From Anaerolineales bacterium (GTDB taxonomy: Bacteria > Chloroflexota > Anaerolineae > Anaerolineales > UBA11858): a DNA stretch of 64,000 nt. The DNA is taken from assembly GCA_016785015.1 (NCBI GenBank), contig JADHTJ010000007.1, forward strand, positions 4,615-68,614. The letters are read 5' to 3'. Both the position numbers and the translations under genes were made by a program. Positions within the stretch are counted from its first letter, which is position 1, and each line of letters opens with the position of its first letter. The notes under the pieces were generated by a model. That model had not been told where the DNA came from. It ran no database searches and saw nothing but the letters and a program-made list of their open reading frames with translations. This document shows positions 20,123 through 49,892 of the stretch, one piece after another.

Positions 20123-20239
20123 GTCACTCTGAGAGAGCGTGCCGCGCATTGCGGCCCTTCGGGCAGGCAGGCCTGTGGCGAGCGAGCGAAGAGTCTCTTA
20201 TACTAAGATTTTCAGATCCTTCGCTGCGCTCAGGATGAC
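20123..20239. repeat. Palindromic repeat of the GTCATCCTGAGCGAAGCGAAGGATC family (interrupted left arm)
   Basis: Right arm GATCCTTCGCTGCGCTCAGGATGAC (20215-20239) is the reverse complement of the 25-mer at 25744-25768 with one mismatch. Left arm GTCACTCTGAGAGAGCG...GAGCGAGCGAAGAGTCTC. Confidence 0.6.
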
Positions 20240-20257
20240 AGCTAGGAAATTTAACTG

Positions 20258-22478: not shown

Positions 22479-22501
22479 AATTATGGAGCAAGAAATCTTT
22501 G

Positions 22502-24094: not shown

Positions 24095-24119
24095 ACACGG
24101 ATAATTGAAGCGAGTGAAG

Positions 24120-25614: not shown

Positions 25615-25743
25615 GATGGCCAGGTTTCCTTTTTTTGATCAGATATCCAATGCTTGATCATCGATTTTAGATGCACAAGAACAAAGGAAAACTTCGGAAG
25701 TCGCACCAAATTAATGCCATGAGTAATTATTTCTCTTAAGATT

Positions 25744-25797
25744 GTCATCCTGAGCGAAGCGAAGGATCTGGAACTCCGTATGGTTAGATTCTTCGCC
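25744..25797. repeat. GTCATCCTGAGCGAAGCGAAGGATC-family repeat with hairpin GCGAAGGATCT...AGATTCTTCGC
   Basis: Read directly. Related to the element at 20123-20239. Confidence 0.6.
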
Positions 25798-26228: not shown

Positions 26229-27953
26229 TTATTCTGTTGAATGAACCAATTGCCCCTCAAAAAAGGTCATTTCAATTTGGGTAGTAGGTATCTCTTCGAT
26301 ATCGATCTCAAATAGATTTTGATCAAGAACGACCAGATCGGCCAATTTTCCCACCTCGATAGAACCGATGTCTTCATTGAGAAAATTCGCATAGGCGCCA
26401 TTTAGGGTCGAAGCCACAAGCATATCTTTGAGACTCGCCCGTTCATCAAGCGGTGGCAACACCCCTAAATCACCGGGTTTCAGTTCAGCATCAGGATCGG
26501 ATATCGAGCGATAGTTGGATTTCCCCCCATAATCCCGATCAAACACGAGCTGAGGCATTCTGCGGGTCATGCCACAATAAATCGCTACCAAGGGTTCTGG
26601 TTCGGTGACAAAGAAATCGCTGGCAATGGTTACGTTAACCCCAGCTTTGAATAGACTATTGAACGGATACTGTTGGTAAAAAGCCCGTTCGTGCCCCAGA
26701 TATGGCAGGTTCAATTTCCAGAAATAATCGTCGATGATCATCCAGTAGGGACTCGTGTGAACGCTGATGCCCAGGTCGCCCATGCGTTTAATGTCTTTCG
26801 GCCGCGCCAATTGCAGATGGGCGAATGAATGCCGCGCATCCCGCTTCCCATTCACATCTTGGGTGAATTCAAGCGCATCCAGGGTGTATTGCGCGGCAGC
26901 ATCTCCTATCACATGAACGTGGATCTGATACCCCGCAGAATCAATTTGCGAGAACGCATCTTGAAGAATATCATCACCCCAAACCTTGATGCCATACCAG
27001 TCATCGTCCCGGTGCGCGTATGGTTCCAGCAACAATCCGGTTTCTTCCTCGGTAACATGATCCGCAAAAAATTTGAAAGAATGCGCCTTGAAATGTGGGT
27101 GAGTAAATCTCTTGGACAGTGCTTTCCCCTGATCGATCTGTGCGGCAACGTCGCCTTCCGGTGAAATGTTCCAGGAGGCGCGATAGCGTACGGTCAACTT
27201 TCCATCTTGAGCGAGTTCATCATAAGCTTCAATGATATGGTGTTCCTCGATACCCAACATGGCCTCGTGGACAGTTGTGATCCCCTTTGCGTTAAGCCAT
27301 CCCTGTAGCCAAAGCAGCGAATTCTTGATTTGTTCCTTTGGAGGTTCTGGGATATGTTGGGCGACAAGGTTCATGGCCCCTGGTTCCTGGAGCAACCCAG
27401 ATGGCTCACTGGTTTTGGGGTCGTGTTTTATTACGCCTTCCTGGGGTTGTGGGGTGTCTTTGTCAATATTGGCGATTTCAAGAGCTTTCGAGTTGACCCA
27501 CATTGAGTGACCGTCTGTGGATGTAATGACAATCGGCCGCACAGAGTCAATCTCGTCCAGCCACTCTTTGCGAGGGCCAATTTCATCAAATGCAGAGCGC
27601 GAATAACCGCCGCCAACGATCCATGGCGCATCTGAATTCTTTGCGGCATATTGACGTACAGCGTTGAGATAGGCCTGGATTTGATCCTCGCCGGTTACAT
27701 CAAAGAGACCCAATCCGTACTGGTATATATGTGCGCTTTGGGCGGGGTGCATGTGGCTGTCCACAAAAGCTGGCAGAACCATTTTGCCATCCAGATCGAT
27801 CACAGTTGTATCCGGACCGATATATGCTTCGACATCAGTATTCGAACCGACAAAGAGTATTTTTCTATCGGCAATCGCAATGGCCTGAGCCCAACTGAGA
27901 TCTGAATCGACAGTGTAGACAGCAGCGTTTTTTAGAACCAGGTTTGCTTTCAT
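26229..27953 (-). CDS. Amidohydrolase family protein (Amidohydro_3 / YtcJ-like metal-dependent hydrolase)
   Basis: LKNAAVYTVD.., PAFVDSHMHP (HxH metal site), HVHVIGDAA, and a C-terminal GSIEVGKLADLVVLD. ATG 27953 lies 1 nt from the upstream stop. Confidence 0.85.
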   Translation of the reverse strand: MKANLVLKNAAVYTVDSDLSWAQAIAIADRKILFVGSNTDVEAYIGPDTTVIDLDGKMVLPAFVDSHMHPAQSAHIYQYGLGLFDVTGEDQIQAYLNAVRQYAAKNSDAPWIVGGGYSRSAFDEIGPRKEWLDEIDSVRPIVITSTDGHSMWVNSKALEIANIDKDTPQPQEGVIKHDPKTSEPSGLLQEPGAMNLVAQHIPEPPKEQIKNSLLWLQGWLNAKGITTVHEAMLGIEEHHIIEAYDELAQDGKLTVRYRASWNISPEGDVAAQIDQGKALSKRFTHPHFKAHSFKFFADHVTEEETGLLLEPYAHRDDDWYGIKVWGDDILQDAFSQIDSAGYQIHVHVIGDAAAQYTLDALEFTQDVNGKRDARHSFAHLQLARPKDIKRMGDLGISVHTSPYWMIIDDYFWKLNLPYLGHERAFYQQYPFNSLFKAGVNVTIASDFFVTEPEPLVAIYCGMTRRMPQLVFDRDYGGKSNYRSISDPDAELKPGDLGVLPPLDERASLKDMLVASTLNGAYANFLNEDIGSIEVGKLADLVVLDQNLFEIDIEEIPTTQIEMTFFEGQLVHSTE

Positions 27954-27954
27954 C

Positions 27955-28572
27955 CTATTCCCTTTCACCAACTACAAACACACCATCTTCTGGCTGTACC
28001 GTGACTGTTTCTTGACCCTCACTCAAAACGAGTAAGAAGCCACGCCGGCCATTATTAAGAAATTGGAGTGTGGCTTTTAACTCTGTCGCAGGAAGACGTT
28101 CATGCTGACTCTTGGCAACAAAGTGGCTGAACTCCTCGCACGGAGGGGCGAAACTGACAAAATCTAACAGCGCTCTTTGCCCGGTCTCCGCGCTCTCGAT
28201 GGCGATCTGCCCCCCGAGATCCTCCACCCAAACTTCCTCGGCATATTCGATAATGATGTTTTCACCGGCGCTACCATCGACCATGTGTTCCCCAAAACGT
28301 TCTCTCATTGCATCATAATGAGATGTAAAGCCAATGGATACAAGATCGTCATCATCATAGGCTTTATCAGGGTGGTTGATGTGGTGAATATCGAGTACAT
28401 GCTCTCCCTCAGGGGTGATTGCCTCGATGCCTAAGGATGAGATCAGCAAGCGTTCTACTTCGACGCGCCTGGTGACGTCGTAAAAGTAGCCTGAAGGTGT
28501 TTCAATGATCAACCCGTTCGGTTGCACTTGGACCATTTTCACGCTGCCAAGTTGGCGGTCATTTTCAGCCAT
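27955..28572 (-). CDS. MOSC-like beta-barrel domain protein (tentative)
   Basis: DGSAGENIIIEY...IAIES...FAPPCEEF resembles the MOSC GENl...PC pattern. Weak call. Confidence 0.4.
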   Translation of the reverse strand: MAENDRQLGSVKMVQVQPNGLIIETPSGYFYDVTRRVEVERLLISSLGIEAITPEGEHVLDIHHINHPDKAYDDDDLVSIGFTSHYDAMRERFGEHMVDGSAGENIIIEYAEEVWVEDLGGQIAIESAETGQRALLDFVSFAPPCEEFSHFVAKSQHERLPATELKATLQFLNNGRRGFLLVLSEGQETVTVQPEDGVFVVGERE

Positions 28573-28655
28573 TATTGATAATCCTTTCTTAATACAAGTC
28601 TGCCTAACTTTAAATAATTGGGCAGACTTGTTTCATTCTAAGCAACACGGCAATA

Positions 28656-29144
28656 TTAGCCCTTCCCCGATTCTTGCAAGGCTTTGATGATTTCGTCTTG
28701 GTGTTCTACAGCATGTTCGATCATATATTCAACCAATGTGGCGATGCTGCCGCGTTCATCCCCCCAAGGATAGAGCATATCTCCGGGAAACTGATCTTCG
28801 GGAATTTCCTGAACAGCTTTCTTCAATTCACCATGGGCTTGTTCCCACTCAGCTAAGATTTGCTGAGTAGATAACTTTTTCTGCTCTACAACAGCTCTTT
28901 CATTATATTCAGTTTCTTCCTCGTCTAGATCGGGGATTGAATATTCTGACCCTTCCTGATACGCGCGCAAGGATTTAGCTGTCTCCTGATCCCAAGTCGC
29001 AATATGCCCAATAATATCCCTGATCCTCCAACCCGAATCGGTGAATACGGGCATTTCCAGATCGACTTCATCCAAGGTTGCACGGGTCGCAATGTGGGCC
29101 TTGGCTAATAGTTTAATCAGGCGTTTCTTTTCTTCAGCTGACAT
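28656..29144 (-). CDS. DinB-superfamily four-helix-bundle protein
   Basis: WRIRDIIGHIATWDQE and EYMIEHAVEHQDEI are His-rich helices typical of DinB_2/ClbS-like proteins. Confidence 0.6.
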   Translation of the reverse strand: MSAEEKKRLIKLLAKAHIATRATLDEVDLEMPVFTDSGWRIRDIIGHIATWDQETAKSLRAYQEGSEYSIPDLDEEETEYNERAVVEQKKLSTQQILAEWEQAHGELKKAVQEIPEDQFPGDMLYPWGDERGSIATLVEYMIEHAVEHQDEIIKALQESGKG

Positions 29145-29219
29145 GTCTATCCTTCCTTATCTCTATAAACGAGCAAACATTGACTCCCAGTTGACAAACA
29201 AAATTAATAAGCTGCACAG

Positions 29220-29307
29220 TTTTTACCACTGGGACACGAAGTTTACGGAGTTTTCTCGGTGAAAACACAGAGATTCTCCGTGTTCTCTATGTCTCTGTGG
29301 TGAAAAA
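29220..29307. repeat. Palindromic repeat (arms TTTTTACCACTGGGACAC / GTCTCTGTGGTGAAAAA; inner ACGGAGTTTTCTCGGTG / CACAGAGATTCTCCGT)
   Basis: Read directly. A partial copy lies at 36151-36227. Confidence 0.6.
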
Positions 29308-29325
29308 TGCAGATTTGTCAGTCAA

Positions 29326-31806
29326 TCAGCAGCGGACCCTTAGAAGCTTGGGATCATACAATGGTCTGAGAGACACTTTTGCAGGATAGCGCACTCCCGC
29401 AATGTCAATTTCATAGGATCCGCTCTTGATGTAATCAACACTGACGGTTTCTCCCTCATTCTCAACCGGACCGACACCGACGGATGCACCTAATGTGTGG
29501 CCATAACCGCCTGCCATAATATAGCCGACGGGCACACTATCTCGGTAGATGATCTCACCGTAATACAGCATGGGTTCTGGATCCTCGAGCAGGAACTGCG
29601 GCATGCGATATCTGTAGCCGGATTCTTTCAGTTTCAGCAGCGCCTCTCGCCCAATGAACCCGCCGGGTTTATCGAAGTCCACGAAGTATCCTAAGCCAGC
29701 TTCCAAAGGCGTATCGGTATTATCGATATCGCCGCCATAATCGCGATAGGCTTTCTCTAAGCGCAGTGTATTGAGTGCCTGTAACCCAATGTGTTTGAGC
29801 CCGAAATCGGCTCCCGATTTCACGAGGGTGTCGAAAACATGCAATGAAAACTCTGTTGGGATGTAAAGCTCCCAACCCAATTCGCCCACATAGGTCACTC
29901 GGATAGCTTTGACAAGTGCGTAGCCGATGTCAATTTCTTGCATAGTGAGAAAAGGGAAGGCTTCATTGGATAAATCTGTATGCGTGATACTGCTCAAAAA
30001 TTCACGCGATTTAGGTCCCTGTATATTGAGCACGCTATATGCCGAAGAGATATTGGTTACGAAAGCGTGCGCATCCGCGGGGATGTGGCGTCTCAACCAG
30101 GCCAGCACTGCTGTCATGGTGCCATCCCCGGTTAGGATCAGAAATTGATCTTCGGCCAGGCGCGTGACGGTTAGATCGGCCTCTATGGTGCCAGTTTCAT
30201 TACACCATTGGGTGTAGACAACTTTGCCCACGGGTACGGCCACATTATTGGCACAGATGCGGTTGAGATATTTTTCTACATCGCGACCCTGTACCAGGAT
30301 TTTGCCCATCACCGAATAGTCCAGCATGGTGACGTTTTCACGAGTGGCATGATGCTCAGCAGCGCTGTACTCGAACCAGTTCTGCCGCCCCCAGGAATAT
30401 TCAACTTTAGGTTCAACCCCTTTGGGGGCGAACCAGTCCGGGTATTCCCAGCCGGCATATTCACCAAAGTAAGCGCCGGCTTCGACCAATCTGTTATGGA
30501 AGGCGGATTTGCGCACATTGCGGGCGGTTTTAAAGTGCTTATTTGGGTATCCATCTTCGAATATTAACCCAAGCAATTCCACTGCACGGTCTTTTAAATA
30601 TGTAGGTGTGTTTTGGTAAGGTAGCATACGGGCAATATCGATCTCGGTGACATCGACATCTGGCACACCATCGACAATCCACTGAGCCATCACTTTCCCA
30701 GCTCCGCCGCCCATGAGAATACCAAGGGAATTGAAGCCCGCCGCAACATAGAAATTATCTAATTCTGGCACCAATCCCATCATGGGGCCTAAATCTGGCG
30801 TAAAACTCTCTGGCCCGCAGAAGAATTTGTGAATACCAGCATTTTCCAGCGCTGGAATTCGCTGCATGGCTTCTTCAATATATGGCATCATGCGGTCCCA
30901 ATCGGGATTGATTTCGCCAAAAGTGAAGTTCTTTGGGATGCCATCCAGCGCCCATGGGGCTGCCACAGGCTCGAACAGGCCGAACAACACGCCCCCCACT
31001 TCTTCACGGTAGTAGGCGTATTTATCCAGGTCAACCAAAACGGGCAATTTCGGATTTATGCCCTCAATCGACTCGGTGATTAAGTAGTAATGTTCTGTGG
31101 GCTGCAAAGGAATATTGACACCCGCTAACTTGCCGATCTGGTGTGCCCACATCCCTGCACAATTGACTACATACTCGGCCTGGATCTCGCCCTTATCGGT
31201 GATGATTGCGGATACCCGCTGATCTTCTTTCGTGATGTCGGTAACAGTAGTTTCTTCGAAAATCTGGACGCCGCCCATGCGTGCGCCTCTGGCCAACGCC
31301 ATCGTTACATCGATGGGATTAACGCGGCCATCGCTGGGAGTATAGAAACCTGCCAGAATATCGTCAGTATAGGCTAGCGGCCAGATTTCCTTAATTTGAT
31401 TGGGGGTTATTTCTTCCATCGCAACGCCAAAATGGCGATCAAAAGCGGCAACCCGACGTAATTCTTCCAGCCTATCGGGCGAGGTGGCTAAATTAATCAT
31501 CCCCACATCTTTATAGCCCGTTGCCAATCCTGTTTCTTTTTCCAGAGAGCTATATAGATCCAGGGTATATTTTGCCATTTCAACCGAAGTTGCGTCGAAA
31601 AAGCCACCCGCCTCTACCAAGCCTGCTGCATGCCAGGTGGTTCCGGCGGTGAGCTGGGCGCGTTCTAAGAGGACAATCTCTTTCCAGCCGAGTTTTGCGA
31701 GATGGTAGGCAGTACTGCACCCAATCACACCACCGCCTATGATCACGACCCGAGCTTGCGAAGGAATTTTGCTATTCGTTCTTTCCTCTGTCTGTTTTTC
31801 CGGCAT
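29326..31806 (-). CDS. Dimethylglycine/sarcosine dehydrogenase-like flavoenzyme (DAO FAD domain + GcvT folate-binding domain)
   Basis: VVIIGGGVIGCSTAYHLAKLGW..GTTWHAAGL, with a C-terminal aminomethyltransferase-like region (TYVGELGWELYIP). 826 aa. Confidence 0.9.
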   Translation of the reverse strand: MPEKQTEERTNSKIPSQARVVIIGGGVIGCSTAYHLAKLGWKEIVLLERAQLTAGTTWHAAGLVEAGGFFDATSVEMAKYTLDLYSSLEKETGLATGYKDVGMINLATSPDRLEELRRVAAFDRHFGVAMEEITPNQIKEIWPLAYTDDILAGFYTPSDGRVNPIDVTMALARGARMGGVQIFEETTVTDITKEDQRVSAIITDKGEIQAEYVVNCAGMWAHQIGKLAGVNIPLQPTEHYYLITESIEGINPKLPVLVDLDKYAYYREEVGGVLFGLFEPVAAPWALDGIPKNFTFGEINPDWDRMMPYIEEAMQRIPALENAGIHKFFCGPESFTPDLGPMMGLVPELDNFYVAAGFNSLGILMGGGAGKVMAQWIVDGVPDVDVTEIDIARMLPYQNTPTYLKDRAVELLGLIFEDGYPNKHFKTARNVRKSAFHNRLVEAGAYFGEYAGWEYPDWFAPKGVEPKVEYSWGRQNWFEYSAAEHHATRENVTMLDYSVMGKILVQGRDVEKYLNRICANNVAVPVGKVVYTQWCNETGTIEADLTVTRLAEDQFLILTGDGTMTAVLAWLRRHIPADAHAFVTNISSAYSVLNIQGPKSREFLSSITHTDLSNEAFPFLTMQEIDIGYALVKAIRVTYVGELGWELYIPTEFSLHVFDTLVKSGADFGLKHIGLQALNTLRLEKAYRDYGGDIDNTDTPLEAGLGYFVDFDKPGGFIGREALLKLKESGYRYRMPQFLLEDPEPMLYYGEIIYRDSVPVGYIMAGGYGHTLGASVGVGPVENEGETVSVDYIKSGSYEIDIAGVRYPAKVSLRPLYDPKLLRVRC

Positions 31807-31807
31807 A

Positions 31808-33268
31808 TTAATCCTTTAGGTTTTTAGCCGCCTGGTCTGCTGACGCCAAGATCTTATCCATCTCTTTTAGTGCTTGATCGGGCAAAGGCTCAGGCTGGTG
31901 AGAATCATAGATCTTGTTGAATTCCTCAATTGCCATCTCACGAGGTTGCCACAAATTACCTTCCGCGTCGAGTTGGCGGAAGATAGGCGAAATGTGAAAA
32001 TCACGCAAATGCTTACGCGTATGTTTTTCGCGTAGGTAGTGGCCGCCTGGACCCACTGCTTTGATCACATTTAGGGAAACATCCAGATCTTTGAATTCAA
32101 ATTCTTTGTATGTATCATAAACATTCATAGCGATCTCGGCGTCGAGAATGATTTGTTCAGGGTAGATAATCATCGAAGAACCCATCAATCCCATATAGCC
32201 GCAAATCTCACCGCCGGCTAAAGGAATCTGTACTGAGCCAAAACCTGCTTCGAAGGCGGATTGCCAGCCGATATCAGAAGCATCACTGCTGAACGACCCA
32301 CCCCCCAAACTGGGCACATCCCAGGCGTGAGCAAGCTGAACTGCTATCAACGAAACTGGCAAGGGCACATCTCCGATATACCCGCCCGTACGCGGATCCA
32401 TCAGCGAAGTAATAATCGAGTGGAAAACCGGCGCACCTGGGGAAGCCAGTTGCATTAATACCATGGCACTGATGACTTCAGCATCGCCCATGACCAAAGC
32501 ACCGAGTACGGATGCAGGGGCTGTTGAACCCATATTGGGCATAGCCATAAAACTGGTCGGAATGCCTGCGTCCGCGTAAATCAACGCAGTTTCGATACCG
32601 TGACCATCTTGAGCTAACGGTGCGATAGTACAAATGTTGGCACAGACGGGTGGTCTGAGGCGTCTCTCGGTTTCACTTCCAGAAACTACGCTGGCCATTT
32701 CGACAATGGATGGAGCAAGCTCGGGATGAACAGTAGTGCCGCCGCGCACATGTTTCAAAGTATTGGTTAATCCGGCATGGCATTCGTGCAAAGGCGCGGC
32801 TTTTCCGAAATCTTGGGCGCTCACCATTGGCCAGAAAAAACTGACCATGGGTATGGCATCACTGACGCGCGCCATCATAGCAACATCTGCTTTTTGGGAA
32901 GCGCGTTTTTCGCGAGTCTTCGGGTCAATGACATGAACCCCACATCCATCGGTACAGAGATAAGAGTTCGAACCATCAAGTGTCAAGTCAAAGCGTTCTT
33001 CACGGCCGCCCAACACAAAACTGCGCGGTGCGGTCCCCATGGCCTTTTTTACCAAATCGGGCTGAATGCGTACAATCTTGGTGTCCCAATCCACGTTGGC
33101 CCCGTGATCAGCAAAGATCGTCAACGCTTTTTGGCTTGGGAAATATACACCTGTTTCCGATAAGAGCTGCAAGGTGCCATTCTTCAACGTCTCCAATTCT
33201 GACTTGCTCAGAACGTCGATTTTGTGGTGGGATGAGATCGAGATGATATCCGGCGTCTCAGAGTGCAT
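31808..33268 (-). CDS. MttB-superfamily (non-Pyl) substrate:corrinoid methyltransferase
   Basis: Start moved to ATG 33268 (RBS aggaga; MHSETPDIISISS.. aligns with the paralog at 43669). The ORF-track start 33409 overlaps the upstream ALDH gene. Motifs ADHGANVD, MARVSDAIPMVSFFWPMVSAQD, GHYLREKHTRKHL. Confidence 0.9.
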   Translation of the reverse strand: MHSETPDIISISSHHKIDVLSKSELETLKNGTLQLLSETGVYFPSQKALTIFADHGANVDWDTKIVRIQPDLVKKAMGTAPRSFVLGGREERFDLTLDGSNSYLCTDGCGVHVIDPKTREKRASQKADVAMMARVSDAIPMVSFFWPMVSAQDFGKAAPLHECHAGLTNTLKHVRGGTTVHPELAPSIVEMASVVSGSETERRLRPPVCANICTIAPLAQDGHGIETALIYADAGIPTSFMAMPNMGSTAPASVLGALVMGDAEVISAMVLMQLASPGAPVFHSIITSLMDPRTGGYIGDVPLPVSLIAVQLAHAWDVPSLGGGSFSSDASDIGWQSAFEAGFGSVQIPLAGGEICGYMGLMGSSMIIYPEQIILDAEIAMNVYDTYKEFEFKDLDVSLNVIKAVGPGGHYLREKHTRKHLRDFHISPIFRQLDAEGNLWQPREMAIEEFNKIYDSHQPEPLPDQALKEMDKILASADQAAKNLKD

Positions 33269-33287
33269 TATGTCTCCTTGATGTCTC

Positions 33288-34754
33288 CTAGAATTTTCGC
33301 GACCATTCCTTTGGCCAGCGCTCGATGACGACTTTCTTTTGGGTGAAGAATTCGACCGCGTCCATACCCTGGCCGTGCATATCGCCAAAGAATGATTCCT
33401 TCCAACCACTAAAGGGGAAGAATGCCATTGGAGCGGCTACGCCGATATTGATGCCCACATTGCCAGCCTCCACTTCATAGCGGAACTTGCGAGCCGCTGC
33501 CCCACTTGATGTGAATAGGCTGGCCTGATTGCCATATACATGACTGTTCGCCAGCTCAATAGCATCTTCGATTGTTTTCACGTGCATCATGCTCAACACT
33601 GGACCGAATATCTCCGTTTTCCAGATCTCACTATTGGGCTGCACATCGGAAAGCACGGTTGGGCGCACAAAGCTACCGCCTTCATATCCCTTGATCGTAG
33701 TCCCGCGCCCATCAACAAGCGCAGAAGCCCCCTCTGTGGTTCCCAGCCCGATCAATTGTTCAATGTTTTCTTTACTGCTCTGGTTGATGACTGGCCCCAT
33801 CTCTACCTCAGCATCAAGCCCATTGCCGACCACGCGGCTGGATGCCGCATCACAGATCATCTCGTTGAAGCTGTTGCGCGCTTCGCCAACCGTTACAGCC
33901 AACGATACCGCCAGGCAGCGCTGTCCTGCGCAGCCAAAAGCTGAATCGGCAACAATTTGGGTGGTCATTTCCATGTCGGCATCCGGTAGGATGATAACTG
34001 GATTCTTAGCTCCACCCTGAGCCTGAACCCGTTTGCCATTCTCCGCGGCGCGGCGATAAACGTACTTGGCTACATTGGTTGAACCAACAAAAGTGACCGC
34101 CCGAATTTCGGGATGATCAAGAATTGCATTTACCGCATCTTTCGAGCCATGCACCATGTTGACGACGCCCTTCGGGAAGCCGACCTGTTCGATCAGCTCG
34201 AAGATAAACTGCATGGTCATAGGGACTCTTTCGGAAGGCTTGACGATATACGTATTGCCCGTTGCCAGCGCATACGGCAGATACCAAAATGTGATCATGC
34301 CGGGGAAGTTGAATGGTGCGATGGTGGCACACACGCCCAAAGGTTGGCGCAGCATGATCTCGTCAATGCCTGGGGCAATATCTTCTGCAATTTCGCCCTT
34401 CATCATCATTGGCATTCCGCAGGCCACTTCCACGTTCTCGATGGCACGCACCATTTCGGCTTTGGCTTCACCGAAGGTCTTGCCACATTCAGTTGAGATA
34501 ATACGGCCAATCTCATCATGGTTAGCAATCAGCAAATCGCGCAACTTAAATAAATACTTGATGCGATCATTTACCGGGGTCTCCCGCCAGGCCGGGAATG
34601 CCTCGGTAGCAGCTTTGGTTGCTGCATCAACTTCCAATTTCCCGCACAGGGGTGTCTTGGTGATCACATCGCCCGTTGCCGGGTTGATGACATCTGCATA
34701 CTCACTTACCTTCGGTTCTACCCATTCACTATTAACGTAATTCAAAATCTTCAT
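33288..34754 (-). CDS. mmsA: CoA-acylating (methyl)malonate-semialdehyde dehydrogenase
   Basis: N-terminal [10 protein letters not shown]...[10 protein letters not shown]. Motifs [16 protein letters not shown] and catalytic CAGQRCLA. The hallmark C-terminal [17 protein letters not shown] matches my memory of MmsA/IolA. Confidence 0.8.
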
Positions 34755-34755
34755 A

Positions 34756-36093
34756 TTAATTCACCTTTCTATCTGATACTTCCAAAGCTTTTTCAACCAG
34801 AGTCAGGCCTTCATCAATTTGTTCTTTGGTGATGCATAGGGGGGGAACAACAAAAATCATTGTACCAATATCTTTCACCATAATGAATGTAAATAGGCCA
34901 TTATCCAGTAATGTCTTCTTTACATCAGCCATCACTGCGGCTGAGAAGGGTTTTTTCGTCTCACGATTTTCTACCAACTCGATTGTGGAGAACAGACCAA
35001 TGTAGCGCACATCGCCTACCGAAGAATGGCGCTCTTTAATATCTTCGAGCGCTTCACCCAAGTATTTGCCTAATGTTGTGGCATTTTCAAGTAAGCCATC
35101 CTCTGCATAGACATCAATCGTAGCCAGTGCGGCAGCACAGGCCAGCGCATGTCCGCTGTAGGTGAGGCCCGCATAAAGGTACTTATCTTCGAAGTGGTTG
35201 GCAATCTCTTCTGAGACGATCACAGCCCCCAGCGGCACATAGCCAGATGTAATCCCTTTTGCTGTTGTGATGATATCTGGTTCCACATCCCAGTTATCGA
35301 CCGCGAACCATTTGCCCGTGCGTCCCCAGCCGCTCATCACTTCGTCGGAGATCAGCAAAATACCGTATTTATCACAGAGCTCTCGAACAGCGGGCCAATA
35401 GTCATCGGGTGGGACGATCAGCCCATTGGAGCCGGTAACACCTTCCATGATGATGGCGGCGATCTTGTCCGGGCCTTCATATTGGATGATCTCTTCGACA
35501 TGGGAGATACATTCTCGTTTGCATGATTCTATCTTCTGCCCAAAAGGACAGCGGTAGCAATATGGATCGAGGAAATGAGCTGTCCCAGGCATGGCCGGTT
35601 CAACCGCATTACGGCGGTAGTCGCCGGTCAGCGCTACGGCTCCATGCGTGGCGCCATGATAGGAGCGGTAGCGCGCCAAAATCTTGTGGCGCCCGGTATA
35701 GAAGCGGGCGATCTTAATAGCATTTTCATTGGCTTCGGCACCACCCAGGGCAAAAAAGCTCTTCTTTAGTTTTCCAGGGGTTACTTCGGCCAGTTTCTTT
35801 CCCAGCAGGCCGCGGGGCCCCGTTGCGTTGCCTGGATGGACAAAACACAACTGCGCGGCCTGGTCCTGTATGGCCTTGACCACCTTGGGGTGCTGATTGC
35901 CGATATTTTGATTCATCAATTGGGAGGAAAAATCCAGGTATCGCTTTCCGTCTGCATCCCAAAAATAGACACCCTCGGACTTGGTTACAGGGATGGGATT
36001 GACCTGAGACTGAATCGCCCAGGAAAAGAAGGTGTATTCTTTACTGAGTTGAACGATTTCTTCAGCCGTCAGGGTGTTAATATCTTTGCTCAT
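34756..36093 (-). CDS. Class III (omega) aminotransferase, beta-alanine/taurine:pyruvate-type
   Basis: [54 protein letters not shown] (PLP lysine). Confidence 0.85.
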
Positions 36094-36150
36094 ATATTGC
36101 CTCGCTTTATATATTGGGGAACACCTTCAGTAGAGGAATTGTGTTCTTAT

Positions 36151-36227
36151 TTCACCACCGAGAGGTGGAGTTCGCGGAAATATTTTAAAAATGAAATGGT
36201 CTAAGATTCTCCGTGTTTTCTGTGGTT
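36151..36227. repeat. Degenerate copy of the 29220-29307 repeat (TTCACCACCGAGAG ... GATTCTCCGTGTTTTCTGTGGT)
   Basis: Read directly. Only partial similarity. Confidence 0.4.
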
Positions 36228-36257
36228 TATGATCACAGTGTTGAATATTTCATGGAA

Positions 36258-37247
36258 TCAAAACGGCAGCCAGCGACCCAGGCCCTTGGCTTTGGCTTTT
36301 CGGAAGACCTCCGGCAGGATAGCAGCATATTCGCCCCAAATGCCCAGTGCGATAAAGACGATGATCTCGTCATCGGATTCGCGTCCCGGTACTTTCCCGG
36401 CCACGATGTCGGGCCATTCGGCATAGACACTCTCCTGGCTAAATTTACCATCTTTAATCAATTGGATCACCTCAGGAATTCTAGGGCTGACGTACTTCCA
36501 GCGGTCTAAGACAACTTTATCGGCTCCGGTGATGACGTCAAATGCCACTTCTTGATAGGAACCTAAGCGGGCAACAAACGTTCCCGGTTTTAGCCAATCT
36601 AAATAAACAAGTTCTTGACTTCCCGTGGTCACCGTGAACACTATATCCGATTTTCTTACAGCAGCCTCTCTATCTTCCAGAGAGACAGCTTCGACAGAGA
36701 AGCCCAATTCCGCTTCAAGATCTGCCGCGCAAGATTGAGCAACTTCAGCAACAATATCCACAAAATAGGCTTGCTTGAGCCCAAAACGTTCAGCCAAAGC
36801 CTTCAGGTGAAGCCGGCCCAATGTTCCTGCTCCAAAAATCGTCACGGTGTCTGATTCTGGACGGGCTAGATAAGCTGTCGTCACGGCTGTTGATGATGCC
36901 GTCTTTAAGCCTGTTACCCAATCAGCCCCCATAAAGCACGCCGGGAGCCCTGTCTCATAGTCGACCAGGATAACTTGGGAGGCAGTGGTCGGCCGATTGT
37001 ATTTCTTCGGGTTGCCGGGGAAATAGCTGAAAGATTTGACAAAGGCATATTCCTCCCCTGCGATATAGCCAGAAAATGGTTTGATAAAGCCGTCGTCATT
37101 GACATTCATATAGAACTTGTCGCCCTCGACGTTGCCGGCAGCATCTTCCTTGATGCCTTTCTCTGCTAAATCGACTGCCTCGGCCACGGTCAAAGTTTGC
37201 TGGACATCGTCTTCGGTCAGGTAAAGAATTTCTTTGGGGATAGGCAT
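36258..37247 (-). CDS. Ornithine cyclodeaminase / mu-crystallin family protein
   Basis: Size 329 aa. N-terminal LYLTEDDVQQTLTVAEAVDLAEKG and Rossmann fold VTIFGAGTLGRLHLKAL. Confidence 0.75.
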   Translation of the reverse strand: MPIPKEILYLTEDDVQQTLTVAEAVDLAEKGIKEDAAGNVEGDKFYMNVNDDGFIKPFSGYIAGEEYAFVKSFSYFPGNPKKYNRPTTASQVILVDYETGLPACFMGADWVTGLKTASSTAVTTAYLARPESDTVTIFGAGTLGRLHLKALAERFGLKQAYFVDIVAEVAQSCAADLEAELGFSVEAVSLEDREAAVRKSDIVFTVTTGSQELVYLDWLKPGTFVARLGSYQEVAFDVITGADKVVLDRWKYVSPRIPEVIQLIKDGKFSQESVYAEWPDIVAGKVPGRESDDEIIVFIALGIWGEYAAILPEVFRKAKAKGLGRWLPF

Positions 37248-37362
37248 GGAAATAGCTCTCCTTTATTCAATTTCCGTATGTATAGGGTAAATATTCTGAC
37301 AAATTAAGCAAGCCAAAATGGATCTTTGGCATCTCCGCAAAGGTTTATTTTGATCAGATGAT

Positions 37363-37869
37363 TTATTCACCTCCATTGAGTTGGCTTTCTCCTAATTTCC
37401 CTGCCCAGCCATAATTCTCTTTGGCGATACGTAAGTACATAAATGTTTCAGCTTCTTTAACGCCCTCAACGGCATGAAGTTTTTTGGAAAGAAAATTCAA
37501 TAGGTGCGTTTTATCTCTGCAAACCACTTCGACATGTAGATCATAACTACCCGTTACCAATACCAAGTAGATTACTTCTTCAAATGCTGCTATCTCGTCA
37601 GCAATTTCTTCCAAGCGATTTACTTCTGCCTTGACACCAATCTGCGCCATGGTGGCAAATCCCATCAAAAGATGATTTGTGACAGCTACAATTTGGAGAA
37701 CACCTTCATTTACCAGGCGATGATATCGTTGACGGATTGTGCCAGTAGAAACCCCCAATTGTTTTGCTATTTGTGCAAATGGCGTTCTGCCGTCTTCACT
37801 TAATATTTTGATGATTTGAAGATCAACATCATCAATTTTTGCCTGCCCTTTGAGTTTGATATCTTGCAT
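37363..37869 (-). CDS. Lrp/AsnC family transcriptional regulator
   Basis: IDDVDLQIIKILSEDGRTPFAQIAKQLGVSTGTIRQRYHRL plus a RAM domain. Confidence 0.9.
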   Translation of the reverse strand: MQDIKLKGQAKIDDVDLQIIKILSEDGRTPFAQIAKQLGVSTGTIRQRYHRLVNEGVLQIVAVTNHLLMGFATMAQIGVKAEVNRLEEIADEIAAFEEVIYLVLVTGSYDLHVEVVCRDKTHLLNFLSKKLHAVEGVKEAETFMYLRIAKENYGWAGKLGESQLNGGE

Positions 37870-37966
37870 AACGCCCTCGATTTCGCAATTATTTGTGGCA
37901 ATATATCACAATCAGGAAGAAAAATCAAGAAAAAAATACCAAATCTGCATAAAAACACATTATTTA

Positions 37967-37997
37967 TTGCAAAATCGACATTTTTATATGGTATACT
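37967..37997 (+). promoter_or_regulatory. Candidate extended -10 promoter (TGgTATACT) in the divergent Lrp/DMGDH intergenic region
   Basis: TGGTATACT at 37989-37997. TTGCAA sits 19 nt upstream (suboptimal spacing). AT-rich region with repeated ATTATTT(N)TTGC motifs that could be Lrp sites. Confidence 0.3.
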
Positions 37998-38069
37998 GCT
38001 TCCAATTTCGAATCCGTGAATTTTCCAGCAACTCCGATAAAGAATATTCTGCCAACGCAGGAGGTATCC

Positions 38070-40550
38070 ATGACCATTAATCAATCATCATCAACCTTGT
38101 CAGGCAACCTTCCAACGCATGCACAAGTAGTGATCATCGGTGGGGGTGTGATTGGCTGCAGCGTTGCCTACCATCTGACAAAATTAGGGTGGAATGATGT
38201 CTTGCTCTTAGAACGTAAAGAACTCACCTCGGGGACCACCTGGCACGCCGCAGGTCTGGTCGTAACACCCAGCGGAGATGAACAATATATCGAGATGGTG
38301 ACCTACACCCGCGAATTAATAAAAAGTCTGGAGGCAGAGACCGGCCAATCCACAGGGTTTAAAGACATCGGATACTTACAGTTAGCCTGTACGCCTGATT
38401 GGTTGGAAGAAAGACGCCGGATGGCTGTTGCGGCACGAAAACACGGCATCAATTATCAAGAAATCTCACCAAAAGAAGTCAAAGAGATGTGGCCGCTGGC
38501 AGATACCAGCGATGTACTTGCCGGATTTTTTACGCCGGAAGACGGACGCGCTAACCCCGTTGACTTCACCATGGCTTTGGCGAAAGGCGCCCGTATGGGC
38601 GGCGCCAAGATTTTCGAAGATACCGAAGTCATCGGAATCAATAAAGAAAACGGACGCGTTACAGGTGTAGTCACAAATAAAGGTGTAATAGAGACAGAGT
38701 ACGTGGTCAATTGTGCCGGGATGTGGGGTCGTGAATTAGGCAAGCTGGCCGGGGTCAATGTGCCCTTACAGGCAGCAGAACACTATTATTTACTCACTGA
38801 ACCCATTGAAGGCGTGCACCCCGATTTGCCGATCATTGAAGATTTTGGCCGCTACTCGTATTTTAGGGAAGAGGTGGGGGGTCTGTTGGTCGGCTTTTTT
38901 GAGCCGGTCGCTGCTCCCTGGGGTATGGACGGCATCCCCAAGGACTTTTCCTTTGGAGAGATCAAACCAGATTGGGATCGCATGATGCCTTATATCGAGA
39001 TCGCCATGGAACGAATTCCCATCCTCAAGAATGCGGGCATCCATAAATTCTTCTGTGGACCGGAAAGCTTCACCCCCGATGGGGGTCCACTAATGGGAGA
39101 AGCGCCTGATTTGGAGAATTTCTACGTTGCGGCGGGTCTGAACTCTTTGGGTATTTTGCAAGGGGGTGGGGTAGGTAAGATTATGGCCCAATGGATTGTG
39201 GATGGTTATTGTCCAGTAGATTCTCTAGATTTCGATATCGCCCGCTGCTTCCCCTTCCAGAGCACGCAGAAATTCTTGACGGATCGCACGGTGGAAACCT
39301 TAGGGCTGCAGTACAAACTTTTTTATCCCAACACTGCACATGAAACGGCTAGGAATGTGCGCAGAACGGCGATCCACGATCAATTGGCCAAAGCGGGCGC
39401 TTTCTTTGTGGATGGCATGGGTTGGGAAATCCCCGACTGGTACGCGCCTCCTGGGGTTGAAGCTAAGATCGAAGAGTATTCTTGGGGGCGGCAGAACTGG
39501 TTTGAATATCATGCCGACGAGCATCGCGCCTGCCGCGAAGATGTGATCATCATGGATGTTACATCCATGTCGAAATTCCTGGTTCAAGGGAGGGACGCGG
39601 AGCGAGTGCTCAATAAAATCTGCGCCAATGATGTTGCAGTTCCCGAAGGCAAAGTCGTCTACACGCAGTGGCTGAATGAGCGCGGCGGGATGGAAGCGGA
39701 TCTAACCGTCACTCGCCTGGCCGAGGATAAGTATTTCATCGTCAGTGCCGGAGATTTCTACGGCCATGATCTGATGTGGCTGGACAAACATATCCCCAAA
39801 GATGCGCATGCGATTGTCACCGACGTAACGTCGGGGTACACGCTGATGAACATCCAGGGCCCCAAATCGCGCCAGCTTGTCAGTCGGTTGACGACGGCAA
39901 ATGTTTCCAAAGATGCTTTCCCCTACATGACGGCTCAAAATATTGATATCGGGTATGCTGTGGTTCAGGTCATGCGAGTGACCTATGAGGGCGAGTTGGG
40001 CTTCGAATTCTATGTACCAGCTGAATTCTCTGCGCATGTTTACGAAGCCGTCGTAGAAGCTGGTCAAGATTTGGGGTTGAGGCACGCTGGTTTTCAGGCG
40101 CTCAATTCTTTGAGGATTGAGAAGGCTTATCGTGAATACGGCCATGATATGGATAGTGAAGATACTCCCCTGGAGGCTGGTCTGGGTTGGGCAGTCAAAT
40201 TTGACAAGCCGGGGGGCTTCATTGGTAGAGAAGCGCTTTTGCGACACAAGCAAAGCGGTCCGCTCAAATATCGCATGGTTTTATTCCTGCTCGAAGACCC
40301 AGAGCCGCTGCTTTTCGGCAATGAGATCATCTACCGTGATGGGGAGTACGTTGGATACCTGCAAACCGGCGCCTATGGTTTTACGCTTGGCGGTGCTATG
40401 GGGATGGGTTTTGTCCATCATGAAGGCGGTGCGACAAATGATTTCATCAATAGTGGTTCATATGAAATCGATATCGCCGGCGAGCGCTTCCCCGCAAAGG
40501 CTTCCTTGCGCCCAATATATGACCCGAAGAATGAGAGAGTACGCAGCTAA
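38070..40550 (+). CDS. Dimethylglycine/sarcosine dehydrogenase-like flavoenzyme (DAO + GcvT domains), paralog of 29326-31806
   Basis: ATG 38070 preceded by aggagg. [31 protein letters not shown] and [13 protein letters not shown]. Confidence 0.9.
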   Translation: [826 protein letters not shown]

Positions 40551-40563
40551 AGGGAGTTGAGCG

Positions 40564-41928: not shown

Positions 41929-41967
41929 TTTGATAAATGCGTTGTGAAATCGAAGTAGGAGGACTTT

Positions 41968-43329: not shown

Positions 43330-43331
43330 TC

Positions 43332-43580
43332 ATGACCCCAGCTAAGGGAATCCGGAAAATAAAAAAACCGAACACTGCAATATGCCCGCTTTGTGGGGAA
43401 CCTAACCATTGCGCTGTCGCGGCCGACCCCAACGCCACAGAATGTTGGTGTGAATCGTTAGAATTTCCCCACGAATTGCTTGCACAGATTCCTGGCGATG
43501 CAGTCCGAAAAACCTGTGTTTGCCAAAAATGCCTCGCGGAATTTCAAGAATCTCACAGAGGATCTGAAGCTACATCATAG
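43332..43580 (+). CDS. Cysteine-rich CWC family protein
   Basis: CPLCGEPNHCA...ECWCE...CVCQKCL spacing is characteristic of Pfam Cys_rich_CWC. ATG 43332 lies 2 nt after the upstream stop. Confidence 0.75.
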   Translation: MTPAKGIRKIKKPNTAICPLCGEPNHCAVAADPNATECWCESLEFPHELLAQIPGDAVRKTCVCQKCLAEFQESHRGSEATS

Positions 43581-43668
43581 ACTCCACTGAAAAAACTACC
43601 AGACGAGGGAAACTTACTTGGTGGCTTTTTGCAGTAGAGTCATCATAGCAACGAATTAAGGAGATTTA

Positions 43669-46428: not shown

Positions 46429-46724
46429 TGTACTTATTTGGGTGTTAGGGGAGTTGATTTCCCATCATATTGATGCATCCAACTAAATTCGTTAGGGAAA
46501 TTACGATGTTGTAAACCATTGTGCAGCTGATAGTTTTCGTGATACACGATGCTCAGAGTGAAACACGGTTACTATATCATCTGCATTATAGCATATCAGT
46601 TGCATTATATTCAGTAATAATCAAAAATTGTGTCGAATATGGTAATTATTTATGTTTAGTATTGACATTTTGGTAATAATCAGTTATTTTAGATGAAATA
46701 AACTAATAACATTGGTTGGGGCAT

Positions 46725-47204: not shown

Positions 47205-47385
47205 ATTGTTCTTCCTGGGTTTTTTATTTATTAAATAAAACTCTCCATTTTTTTGTTGGTGTATCACTTGGAATATTTGTGCGTTGCATCTCACCCAGAG
47301 GAGGCACAATTGGAAAATTGATTGTAAATCTGCAAACATGATTGAATGATATCGCTATTCTTATTTGTTAATAAGGAGGTTTTTT

Positions 47386-48033
47386 ATGTCAGATATGTTT
47401 GAGAAGTTGGCCCAGGCCGTGATTGATGGAGAGCCGGAAGATGCCGTCGCCCTTGCGACAGAGGCCCTCGATCAGGGTTTGGATCCTTTAGATTGCATCA
47501 CCAAAGGTTTAACAAAAGGGATCCAGAAAGTGGGTGAATTATTTGCCAGTGGCGAATACTATTTACCTGAACTGATCATCGGCGCTGATGCTATGAAGGA
47601 TGCCTTGGAAATTCTCGAGCCTGCCCTTGTCGGAGATCAGAAACGCGATGTTGTCGCTACTGTGGTTCTGGGAACGGTTCAAGGCGATTTGCATGAAATC
47701 GGTAAGACGCTGGTTGGAACCATGTTGACAGCGAACGGTTTCCGGGTCAAGGATATTGGCGTAGATCAGCCGGCATCGGCTTTTGTTGAAGCGGTAAAAG
47801 AAGTTGATGCAACTATCATCGGAGCGTCAGCACTGCTGACAACTACTATGCTGCAGCAAGAAAAACTCATCCAGGCTTTGGACGAAGCTGGCTTGAGACA
47901 AAAAGTAAAAGTTATGGTCGGAGGGGCACCTGTGACTGACGAATTTGCGAAGAGGATTGGCGCAGATGGATATGCTGAAGATGCCATCTCCGCCGTTAAT
48001 CTGGCTTATCGCCTGGCAGATGCTCCGGTATAA
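47386..48033 (+). CDS. Corrinoid (cobalamin-binding) methyl-carrier protein, MtgC/MttC-like
   Basis: B12-binding_2 helical cap followed by a Rossmann domain with GDLHEIGKTLVG (DxHxxG), SALLTTT (SxL) and MVGGAP (GG). ATG 47386 with an aaggagg RBS. Confidence 0.9.
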   Translation: MSDMFEKLAQAVIDGEPEDAVALATEALDQGLDPLDCITKGLTKGIQKVGELFASGEYYLPELIIGADAMKDALEILEPALVGDQKRDVVATVVLGTVQGDLHEIGKTLVGTMLTANGFRVKDIGVDQPASAFVEAVKEVDATIIGASALLTTTMLQQEKLIQALDEAGLRQKVKVMVGGAPVTDEFAKRIGADGYAEDAISAVNLAYRLADAPV

Positions 48034-49876: not shown

Positions 49877-49892
49877 GTATATAGGAGTGAGT

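Follow-up and report, generated by a model that had tools for sequence, protein, structure and literature searches.

Organization of the operon

The window analyzed here is a stretch of 64,000 nucleotides from an Anaerolineales bacterium of the phylum Chloroflexota (assembly GCA_016785015.1, contig JADHTJ010000007.1, positions 4,615 to 68,614 of the forward strand), and our subject is a four-gene operon on its minus strand at 29326-36093, which appears to join two enzymes of N-demethylation to two enzymes of a beta-alanine-type lower pathway. In the open reading frame (ORF) list of the window, the four genes stand in tandem and are read in the following order:

34756..36093, minus strand: class-III (omega) aminotransferase (AT) of the PRK06062 subfamily, gene 1 of the operon, 445 aa, assigned by Pfam and NCBIfam
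33288..34754, minus strand: predicted CoA-acylating (methyl)malonate-semialdehyde dehydrogenase (MMSDH), called type A below, 488 aa, assigned by TIGR01722
31808..33268, minus strand: non-pyrrolysine methyltransferase of the MttB superfamily (MttB_X), 486 aa, assigned by Pfam MTTB
29326..31806, minus strand: flavoenzyme of the DMGDH/SARDH family (DMGDH1), 826 aa, with DAO, FAO_M, GCV_T, and GCV_T_C domains

The gaps measure 1 nt between the AT and aldehyde dehydrogenase (ALDH) genes, 19 nt between the ALDH gene and MttB_X, and 1 nt between MttB_X and DMGDH1, and these 1-nt and 19-nt spacers indicate that AT, MMSDH, MttB_X, and DMGDH1 are co-transcribed. The MttB-like ORF was listed as 31808-33409 from a GTG codon; translation in fact begins at the ATG codon at 33268, located 19 nt past the stop codon of the ALDH gene with an AGGAG 6 nt on its 5' side, and the product has 486 residues. 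The arrangement is no chance juxtaposition in one genome, as the order recurs in related genomes. A preliminary description of this DNA, made from the letters alone, had reported four minus-strand genes with 1-19-nt spacers, their family assignments, the hallmark motif of the dehydrogenase, and OCD/mu-crystallin and Lrp genes just upstream. We recovered all of these, the four families by Pfam and NCBIfam and the upstream genes at 36258-37247 and 37363-37869 on the same strand, and the synteny comparison that it had proposed turned up the four-gene block in the same order elsewhere. The gene families and their order tentatively suggest a single operon of two modules, an upper one for demethylation and a lower one composed of AT and MMSDH, with beta-alanine betaine as the simplest substrate; we put this forward as somewhat less than an even prospect.

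The dehydrogenase and the aminotransferase

The ALDH matches Pfam Aldedh at 472 bits and scores 567 bits against TIGR01722, the model of the CoA-acylating MMSDHs, with a cut-off of 448.5, and the next family reaches 353 bits against its own cut-off of 770. The solved MMSDHs 9q0d and 1t90 are related to it at 480 and 474 bits. The hallmarks of the family are kept: in the GQRC motif an Arg directly precedes the catalytic Cys, a further conserved Arg is present, and the C terminus carries FPFSGWK. Both Arg residues align with conserved Arg residues in 1t90 and 9q0d; work on B. subtilis is reported to show that they bind the substrate carboxylate. Roles as an alpha-ketoglutarate semialdehyde dehydrogenase, a succinate semialdehyde dehydrogenase (SSADH), or a betaine aldehyde dehydrogenase were rejected at scores far below the cut-offs. 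By sequence, the ALDH is clearly to be assigned as a CoA-acylating MMSDH, and a CoA-dependent oxidative decarboxylation of malonate semialdehyde is predicted.

The AT matches Pfam Aminotran_3 at 342 bits and belongs to NCBIfam PRK06062 (559 bits; cut-off 472). Its PLP-lysine motif aligns with the segment TFAKGVTCGY of 6jix, the taurine:2-oxoglutarate aminotransferase (Toa) of Bifidobacterium kashiwanohense, which is the closest characterized relative by a wide margin (409 bits, with the next entry at 296). Taurine and beta-alanine are isosteric, and the operon might act on N-methylated taurines (taurobetaine, N,N-dimethyltaurine, or N-methyltaurine), with the AT converting the demethylated taurine to sulfoacetaldehyde. 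The partner enzyme speaks against such substrates. It is a clear MMSDH whose Arg residues match those of the solved MMSDHs, and it scores 224 bits against the sulfoacetaldehyde dehydrogenase SafD, far from the cut-off of 700, so that a SafD role was rejected as well. The known acylating sulfoacetaldehyde dehydrogenase, SauS, is labeled an acylating succinic semialdehyde dehydrogenase in a paper that does not mention the MMSDH family (PMC10413351). In addition, no Xsc-like, isethionate, or sulfite-export genes were seen among the window ORFs of at least 120 aa, and the AT orthogroup is almost always paired with an MMSDH. We regard taurine derivatives as hardly credible substrates and rejected them as the main explanation on account of the ALDH, which is not SafD-like, and of the description of SauS as a succinic semialdehyde type of enzyme.

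The pairing was established by a scan with the AT that returned 80 loci, of which 38 were counted, namely the informative Anaerolineales loci with an AT at least 68% identical. An MMSDH gene lies directly downstream of the AT in 31 of the 38 and within 3.5 kb in four more. The pair of an omega-aminotransferase and an MMSDH, adjacent, co-oriented, and conserved across genomes, thereby qualifies as a bau-like cassette. The direct succession of the two genes in 31 loci argues for a substrate of the beta-alanine or 3-aminoisobutyrate type, and in this context the aldehyde product of the AT would be the substrate of the MMSDH, i.e., malonate or methylmalonate semialdehyde instead of sulfoacetaldehyde. 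The gene context thus argues for an amino-donor specificity of the beta-alanine type over taurine.

The methyltransferase, the flavoenzymes, and the corrinoid protein

MttB_X matches Pfam MTTB at 197 bits over residues 15-471 of its 486 residues and aligns at full length with 7xcl and 2qne. Against TIGR02369, the equivalog of the pyrrolysine-containing trimethylamine methyltransferases, it reaches 303 bits, below the cut-off of 525. Its 486-codon frame contains neither an internal stop nor an in-frame UAG, and the pyrrolysine position of 7xcl aligns to Phe or Ser in the MttB_X alignments. Its distances to true MttB (150 bits) and to MtgB, the methyltransferase for glycine betaine (145 bits), are about equal.

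MtgB contacts glycine betaine through Y97, R312, H348, and F356, and R312 is reported to be conserved in all characterized members, which use acidic quaternary amines (PMC13080624). In our HMMER alignment, these four residues align to C109, L321, G357, and S365 of MttB_X; the identity is only ~27%, but the alignment is unambiguous in the VPS[R/L]xGG block. In a MAFFT alignment of 159 sequences, the R312 position is Leu in all MttB_X orthologs examined, the Y97 position is Cys or Thr in most of them, and none of the eight MttB paralogs of the window has an Arg at the R312 position. With R312 replaced by Leu, an acidic betaine would need another mode of binding, unless the substrate has a non-acidic head group. 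MttB_X was not classified as MtgB-type, as the substrate motif of Y97, R312, H348, and F356 is absent; this excludes the MtgB type and not the use of glycine betaine. The motif is a poor discriminator in this lineage because none of the eight paralogs carries it.

DMGDH1 contains all four domains, DAO, FAO_M, GCV_T, and GCV_T_C, above the Pfam cut-offs. Its best solved relatives are the mammalian DMGDH 4pab (516 bits, the alignment covering residues 16-818) and the dimethylglycine oxidase of Arthrobacter 1pj5 (377 bits), both of which align with it over the whole length. No NCBIfam equivalog reaches its cut-off, and the identity to true DMGDH is moderate. Two further proteins, both encoded on the plus strand, may complement the methyltransferase and the flavoenzyme:

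38016..40550, plus strand: second paralog of the DMGDH family (DMGDH2), with the same four-domain architecture as DMGDH1
47365..48033, plus strand: corrinoid (B12-binding) protein, with Pfam B12-binding_2 and B12-binding domains

DMGDH2 is 62% identical to DMGDH1. Its orthologs are situated no more than 6-8.5 kb from MttB_X in seven loci (L004, L005, L009, L011, L015, L019, and L061); another occurs in L069, and the one in L003 is truncated. DMGDH2 is thus a conserved neighbor and the more likely candidate for the remaining, third demethylase. The corrinoid protein is the only one in the window and lies ~11 kb from the operon on the opposite strand. Its nearest models are an MtgC-type NCBIfam model (223 bits; cut-off 310) and TIGR02370 (214.6 bits; cut-off 215.3). 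An ortholog shares a gene cluster with the OCD...MttB_X genes in L001 and L009, and relatives hold the corrinoid protein and an ABC importer within the same cluster. It is presumed to be the methyl acceptor for MttB_X and for the other MttB paralogs. A pterin-binding methyl-corrinoid:tetrahydrofolate methyltransferase and a reductive activase were not seen among the window ORFs of at least 120 aa and may lie elsewhere in the genome; the window therefore does not hold a complete methyl-transfer system of the MtgBCD type.

Conserved synteny of MttB_X with the dehydrogenase

The MttB_X orthogroup comprises more than 120 clusters at 78-91% identity, and the nearest homologs and loci all come from metagenome-assembled genomes of Anaerolineales or Chloroflexota; the names of some point to sampling in the Black Sea or in marine sediment. 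An identical sequence is also present in assembly GCA_014384465.1. For the synteny analysis, ORFs were called in 67 loci and compared with the window proteins. The neighbor-joining tree shows three clades, X-proper, X', and MttB_c, and the members of X' and MttB_c are 62-69% identical to MttB_X. The X-proper clade (n = 24) consists of the window, 22 loci from the tree, and L069, which was added by identity and gene order. Members of the X' clade sit inside another operon, composed of MttB_d, MttB_e, X', and an agmatine-deiminase-like gene.

DMGDH1 lies directly 3' of MttB_X in 17 of the 20 X-proper loci with enough downstream sequence, usually with a spacer of 1 nt, and MttB_X followed by DMGDH1 is the conserved core of these clusters. 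On the other side, an MMSDH gene directly precedes MttB_X in 17/24 loci, and no MMSDH was found beside members of the X' or MttB_c clades in the loci compared. Of the 24 X-proper loci, 14 have a Toa-like AT, 14 have a GSAM-like aminotransferase, and 21 have one or both, and an OCD gene lies upstream of MttB_X in 14 of the 15 loci with enough flank. These gene orders support a specific and repeated link between the MttB_X clade and MMSDH genes.

The MMSDHs beside MttB_X belong to four types that are mutually only 39-60% identical. Type A occurs in the window, L004, L005, and L069; type B in ten loci; type C in L010; and type D in L011, L012, L061, and L067. The one representative scored per type passes the TIGR01722 cut-off of 448.5 in each case, with 567, 552, 498, and 564 bits. 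The G[EQ]RC motif is present in 18/18 MMSDHs examined and the C-terminal FPF[SA]GxKxSFFG motif in 17/17 full-length ones. In the neighbor-joining tree, the window lineage, with its type A MMSDH, is nested among the type B lineages. With four MMSDH lineages at one position, it is therefore the enzyme function and not a single gene lineage that is retained beside MttB_X, and from this we infer the strongest argument for two functionally coupled modules.

The AT-MMSDH pair also leads a life of its own. The generic Anaerolineales cassette, in the order Lrp, GSAM-like aminotransferase, Toa-like AT, and MMSDH, was found without MttB in ~31 loci within L068-L117, and its range includes freshwater, groundwater, and sludge lineages. 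MttB or DMGDH genes accompany the AT in only one of the 38 informative loci (L069, Ca. Desulfolinea nitratireducens). In both annotated loci of the generic cassette (L079 and L068), the genes on the 3' side include a third aminotransferase and a PotA-type ABC transporter, preceded in L079 by an amino-acid permease and a universal stress protein (Usp). The window AT and MMSDH are closest to this cassette, with 87% and 83% identity in L068; in marine lineages, the AT-MMSDH pair stands directly upstream of the MttB_X-DMGDH1 pair. By its distribution, the AT-MMSDH pair looks like a pre-existing module of the beta-alanine/polyamine type, independent and widespread, and the generic cassette resembles an uncharacterized catabolic unit for beta-alanine or polyamines. 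The demethylation module looks as if it had been grafted onto such a cassette.

Alternatively, two unrelated modules may stand side by side, with MttB_X and DMGDH1 (together with DMGDH2) demethylating glycine betaine or another common methylamine to glycine or a comparable end product, and the AT-MMSDH pair being the ordinary Anaerolineales cassette for beta-alanine, 3-aminoisobutyrate, or polyamines, which the demethylated product does not feed. Apart from the scarcity of MttB and DMGDH genes among the AT loci, the MttB_X-DMGDH1 pair occurs without an adjacent MMSDH in L003, L009, L013, and L019. The best solved relative of DMGDH1 is a true dimethylglycine dehydrogenase, the corrinoid protein is nearest to MtgC-type models, and an MttB gene beside genes of the later demethylations is the pattern described for glycine betaine in marine bacteria (PMC12478193). 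However, four MMSDH lineages occupy one position beside MttB_X and never stand beside the closest paralog clades, and the short spacers indicate co-transcription. None of the four glycine betaine contacts of MtgB is kept, which points in the same direction only weakly, since this is true of all eight paralogs. On balance, we consider a mere juxtaposition somewhat unlikely.

Accessory genes and fuller clusters in relatives

Two genes precede the operon in the window:

36258..37247, minus strand: NAD(P) enzyme of the OCD/mu-crystallin family, 164 nt upstream of the operon, assigned by Pfam
37363..37869, minus strand: Lrp/AsnC-type regulator (AsnC_trans_reg and HTH_AsnC-type domains), divergent from the DMGDH2 operon

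The OCD protein matches Pfam OCD_Mu_crystall at 135 bits, and no NCBIfam model reaches its cut-off. Its solved relatives are SbnB (4m54, 124 bits), the Pyr2C reductase (6t3e, 120 bits), and an archaeal alanine dehydrogenase (1omo, 106 bits). Candidate roles are the regeneration of the amino acceptor, in the manner of an alanine dehydrogenase, or the oxidation of an imine or secondary amine. In L004, L005, and L069, the corresponding site is taken by orthologs of the Lrp protein (86-88% identity), and the gene probably encodes the local regulator.

In relatives, the cluster is fuller and comprises OCD, a GSAM-like aminotransferase, a saccharopine-dehydrogenase-like protein (Sacchrp_dh), AT, MMSDH, MttB_X, and DMGDH1, while the other strand carries DMGDH2 and the gene of a tungsten-type aldehyde:ferredoxin oxidoreductase (AFOR). 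The AFOR gene lies 3' of DMGDH1 in L001, L003, L007-L009, L011, L013, L018, and L061, and a small ThiS-like gene stands beside it in both annotated loci (L001 and L003). The GSAM-like aminotransferase scores 570 bits against NF041362; among solved proteins, GSA aminomutases are closest to it. The saccharopine-dehydrogenase-like protein is a distant relative of the carboxyspermidine dehydrogenase 8deb. Functional identities for the OCD protein, the saccharopine-dehydrogenase-like protein, and the GSAM-like aminotransferase were considered and dropped, as the matches are distant and no role is assignable. The window itself has neither the AFOR gene nor the GSAM-like aminotransferase gene.

These fuller clusters hint at a broader range of methylated aminopropyl compounds whose degradation runs through the same intermediates. 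The operon might represent a reduced version of such a cluster and act on an N-methylated aminopropyl compound of larger size or stronger basicity, with beta-alanine betaine or beta-alanine as an intermediate. Examples would be (3-aminopropyl)trimethylammonium, homocholine, N-methylated norspermidine or spermidine, and the methylated long-chain polyamines of diatoms, and the GSAM-like aminotransferase, the saccharopine/carboxyspermidine-dehydrogenase-like enzyme, the OCD protein, and the AFOR of the relatives would then carry out C-N cleavage and aldehyde oxidation. The distant kinship with carboxyspermidine dehydrogenase is in line with this, as are the PotA-type transporter and third aminotransferase that follow the generic cassette, the joint occurrence of AT, Sdh, MMSDH, AT2, and AFOR without MttB in L128, and the loss of the carboxylate-binding Arg from MttB_X, which fits a non-acidic head group. 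However, the window, L004, and L005 keep the four-gene block without the GSAM-like aminotransferase, Sacchrp_dh, and AFOR; the enzyme assignments are all distant and far below curated cut-offs; and such a pathway is undescribed and has chemical plausibility as its sole basis. We consider a larger aminopropyl substrate distinctly improbable.

Proposed pathway

Beta-alanine betaine was chosen as the substrate because it is the simplest one that fits the reduced gene set of the window. Under the two-module reading, it would be degraded via N,N-dimethyl-beta-alanine and N-methyl-beta-alanine. MttB_X would demethylate a quaternary or tertiary N-methyl amine once, with the corrinoid protein (47365-48033) as the methyl acceptor. 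In the next step, DMGDH1 would oxidatively strip further N-methyl groups from the tertiary and/or secondary amine and pass the C1 units to tetrahydrofolate, and DMGDH2 probably assists in the remaining demethylations. The resulting primary amine, beta-alanine, would be transaminated by the AT to malonate semialdehyde or a 2-substituted analog, which the MMSDH would turn into acetyl-CoA (or propionyl-CoA) and CO2. The gene families, the operon structure, and the conserved synteny are observed directly; from them we infer that the modules are coupled, in which order the steps run, and which substrate is used.

Several observations weigh against this route. At the level of the enzymes, MttB_X is without all four glycine-betaine-binding residues of MtgB, including the carboxylate-binding Arg, and the closest characterized relative of the AT uses taurine. 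At the level of gene order, 7 of the 24 clade members have no adjacent MMSDH, several of them having only the GSAM-like aminotransferase, and most AT-MMSDH cassettes are without any MttB gene, so the modules may be independent and juxtaposed. The OCD gene is conserved beside MttB_X at least as much as the AT gene, and the GSAM-like aminotransferase, saccharopine-dehydrogenase-like, and AFOR genes are frequent in the clusters of relatives; the route gives a role to none of them. The importer linked to these genes is an Opp/Dpp (SBP_bac_5) system and not a typical betaine transporter. The route also depends on the distant corrinoid protein and on a methyltransferase and an activase that were not seen in the window; the flavoenzymes need an electron acceptor, and DMGDH2 is probably required as well. 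Beta-alanine betaine is a candidate substrate drawn from gene content. Finally, an MttB gene beside DMGDH-type genes of later demethylation is a known glycine betaine arrangement in marine bacteria (PMC12478193).

The claims of the preliminary description about this route fared differently. Its view of AT and MMSDH as the pair acting on beta-alanine or 3-aminoisobutyrate agrees with the 31 of 38 informative loci in which the MMSDH follows directly, and its statement that it knew of no MttB member characterized for beta-alanine betaine is in accordance with our literature searches, which found none. The claim that the route is run entirely by this operon does not hold, given the corrinoid gene ~11 kb away on the other strand and the missing methyltransferase and activase genes in the window. 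For the beta-alanine betaine route as a whole, the MMSDH hallmarks and the linkage of MttB_X to MMSDH are in its favor, the lost Arg and the OCD gene without a role are against it, and beta-alanine betaine stays a candidate substrate. The preliminary description had also named a preference of the AT for taurine as evidence against the route; the taurine-using relative touches this point, and the gene context argues the other way.

Flanking repeats

The four-gene block is flanked exactly by two copies of an imperfect direct repeat of ~90 nt:

29215..29310, minus strand: long hairpin just 3' of DMGDH1, one copy of the repeat, -35 kcal/mol, z = -5.6
36150..36235, minus strand: degenerate second copy of the repeat, in the spacer between the OCD and AT genes, weak fold, z = -0.67

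None of 200 shuffled sequences was as stable as the downstream hairpin, which is possibly a transcript end or a REP-like element. The segment 29215-29310 aligns with the spacer 36095-36257 at 74% identity, and the two copies share a 14-nt exact core, AACACGGAGAATCT, which occurs within the window only at these two sites. The upstream copy occupies the site where the close relative L069 has the gene of the GSAM-like aminotransferase. The core was not found in 146 related loci and, being carried by none of them, is unusable as a marker of mobility. An Rfam scan of the whole window gave no family at the gathering score; therefore, the repeat in the OCD-AT spacer is no known riboswitch or leader. 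A consensus scan of 28500-38200 gave 12 promoter-like sites, where 13.4 would be expected, and 9 terminator-like sites (expectation 9.4); this is background and therefore uninformative on the boundaries of the operon.

The surrounding methylamine island

The operon is part of a larger island. Eight non-pyrrolysine MttB paralogs, pairwise 25-62% identical, and three AsnC/Lrp regulators lie within the 64 kb, as do an Opp/Dpp-type ABC importer, two DAO-family genes, and two agmatine-deiminase-like genes. The MttB paralogs are located as follows:

22499-23926: MttB paralog
24105-25571: MttB paralog
31808-33268: MttB_X
43669-45132: MttB_c, the closest paralog of MttB_X in the window, 62% identity
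51917-53371: MttB paralog
53377-54768: MttB paralog
57952-59421: MttB paralog
59418-60857: MttB paralog

Two paralogous sets of MttB and DMGDH genes diverge around the Lrp gene. The second set has no AT and no MMSDH gene, which is in line with duplication of the demethylation module and its adaptation to a homologous substrate. This divergent set on the plus strand (38016-45132) comprises DMGDH2, DAO1, DAO2, and MttB_c, in which DAO1 and DAO2 form a tandem with 68% identity and are nearest to TIGR03329, a "putative aminophosphonate oxidoreductase" (212 bits; cut-off 633). By analogy, the set may work in the manner of the studied operon, an oxidative deaminase taking over the part of the aminotransferase.

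A long operon on the plus strand (46716-62318) begins with an AsnC gene, the corrinoid protein, an SBP_bac_5 ABC importer, MttB_d, and MttB_e and continues with two agmatine-deiminase-like genes, an N-carbamoylputrescine-amidase-like gene, MttB_f, MttB_g, and an ALDH gene. It pairs MttB enzymes with hydrolases of guanidino groups and is kept in many Anaerolineae loci, often with an extra MttB of the X' clade after MttB_e. A 34-nt inverted repeat of the TGTCATCCTGAGCGAAGCGAAGGATC type (20207-20240 and 25743-25776, 91% complementary) flanks a block composed of an AMP-dependent ligase, AsnC, MttB_a, and MttB_b. Following the studied operon on the minus strand (26229-29144), there are Amidohydro_3, MOSC-domain, and DinB/MDMPI-like genes, and the same trio is found in L004 and L005; DinB and MOSC genes adjoin MttB_b and MttB_c in other loci. 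Further out, the minus strand (16907-19786) encodes a 959-aa protein with three FHA domains, an ABC ATPase, and an ABC-2 membrane domain, and two ABC1 atypical kinase genes lie nearby at 9446-13354.

Comparison with known systems

Older work on homocholine-degrading soil bacteria is said to have proposed a C-N cleavage of beta-alanine betaine to trimethylamine, with no genes named. Our literature searches found no MttB member assigned to beta-alanine betaine and no genetic pathway for its catabolism, nor did they find a study of these Anaerolineales clusters or of Anaerolineae MttB genes. In the sea and its sediments, methylated nitrogen osmolytes make up a large labile store of carbon, nitrogen, and methyl groups, and they are precursors of trimethylamine and methane. 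Only six substrates of the MttB superfamily have been characterized so far, and this genome has eight uncharacterized paralogs in 64 kb. For one of these, the conserved linkage of an MttB gene to genes for the full oxidation of the carbon skeleton would give a concrete substrate prediction and point to a non-methanogenic sink for a betaine in abundant sediment Chloroflexota. If the prediction is true, beta-alanine betaine, the nitrogen analog of DMSP, becomes a new substrate class of the superfamily. It is possible, if doubtful, that the operon represents the first genetic blueprint for the demethylative catabolism of beta-alanine betaine, with a substrate class new to MttB enzymes in a clade without the conserved Arg, and that it is perhaps a reduced form of a larger Anaerolineales cluster for methylated aminopropyl compounds of anoxic marine sediments, one that channels each C3 unit via malonate semialdehyde to acetyl-CoA. 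The locus would also illustrate how pathways are assembled, by a demethylation module grafted on a beta-alanine cassette with four MMSDH lineages in one position.

The closest known arrangement for the upper module is that of MtgB, MtgC, and MtgD with dimethylglycine and sarcosine dehydrogenases in Desulfitobacterium hafniense, Methanolobus vulcani, and Ruegeria pomeroyi (PMC13080624, PMC12478193). Both have a non-pyrrolysine MttB homolog with a small corrinoid protein and an adjacent gene of the DMGDH family, with C1 units delivered to tetrahydrofolate, as predicted in our case. In contrast, MttB_X keeps none of the four MtgB contacts, no MtgD-like or RamA gene was seen in the window, and the studied operon adds an AT and an MMSDH that glycine betaine catabolism does not need. 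In the case of Eubacterium limosum, MtcB acts on carnitine, MtyB on gamma-butyrobetaine, MtpB on proline betaine, and MthB on phosphocholine (PMC8604678, PMC12155760, PMC13080624). These enzymes share with MttB_X the superfamily and the presumed chemistry, in which Co(I) accepts a single methyl group of a quaternary amine. However, they feed the methyl groups to acetogenesis and leave the demethylated product, whereas the studied operon appears to catabolize the skeleton fully; MttB_X also has Leu in place of the conserved carboxylate-binding Arg, and its host belongs to the Chloroflexota.

Toa of B. kashiwanohense and the AT align over their whole length (409 bits), and the two enzymes differ in their partners. 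Toa is reported to work with a sulfoacetaldehyde reductase in the assimilation of taurine nitrogen (PMC6616044), whereas the partner of the AT is an MMSDH and the window ORFs hold no sulfonate genes.

For the lower module, the counterpart is bauABCD of Pseudomonas aeruginosa, in which the omega-aminotransferase BauA and the MMSDH BauC convert beta-alanine via malonate semialdehyde to acetyl-CoA. An aminotransferase gene beside an MMSDH gene is common to both, and a permease or polyamine-type ABC transporter is found near the Anaerolineales cassette. In contrast to bauABCD, the AT belongs to the Toa-like PRK06062 subfamily, the regulator is of the Lrp type, and the cassette is joined to an MttB and DMGDH module. 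Demethylation by MttB and DMGDH enzymes is of a known kind, and its combination with an AT and MMSDH lower pathway appears to be new.

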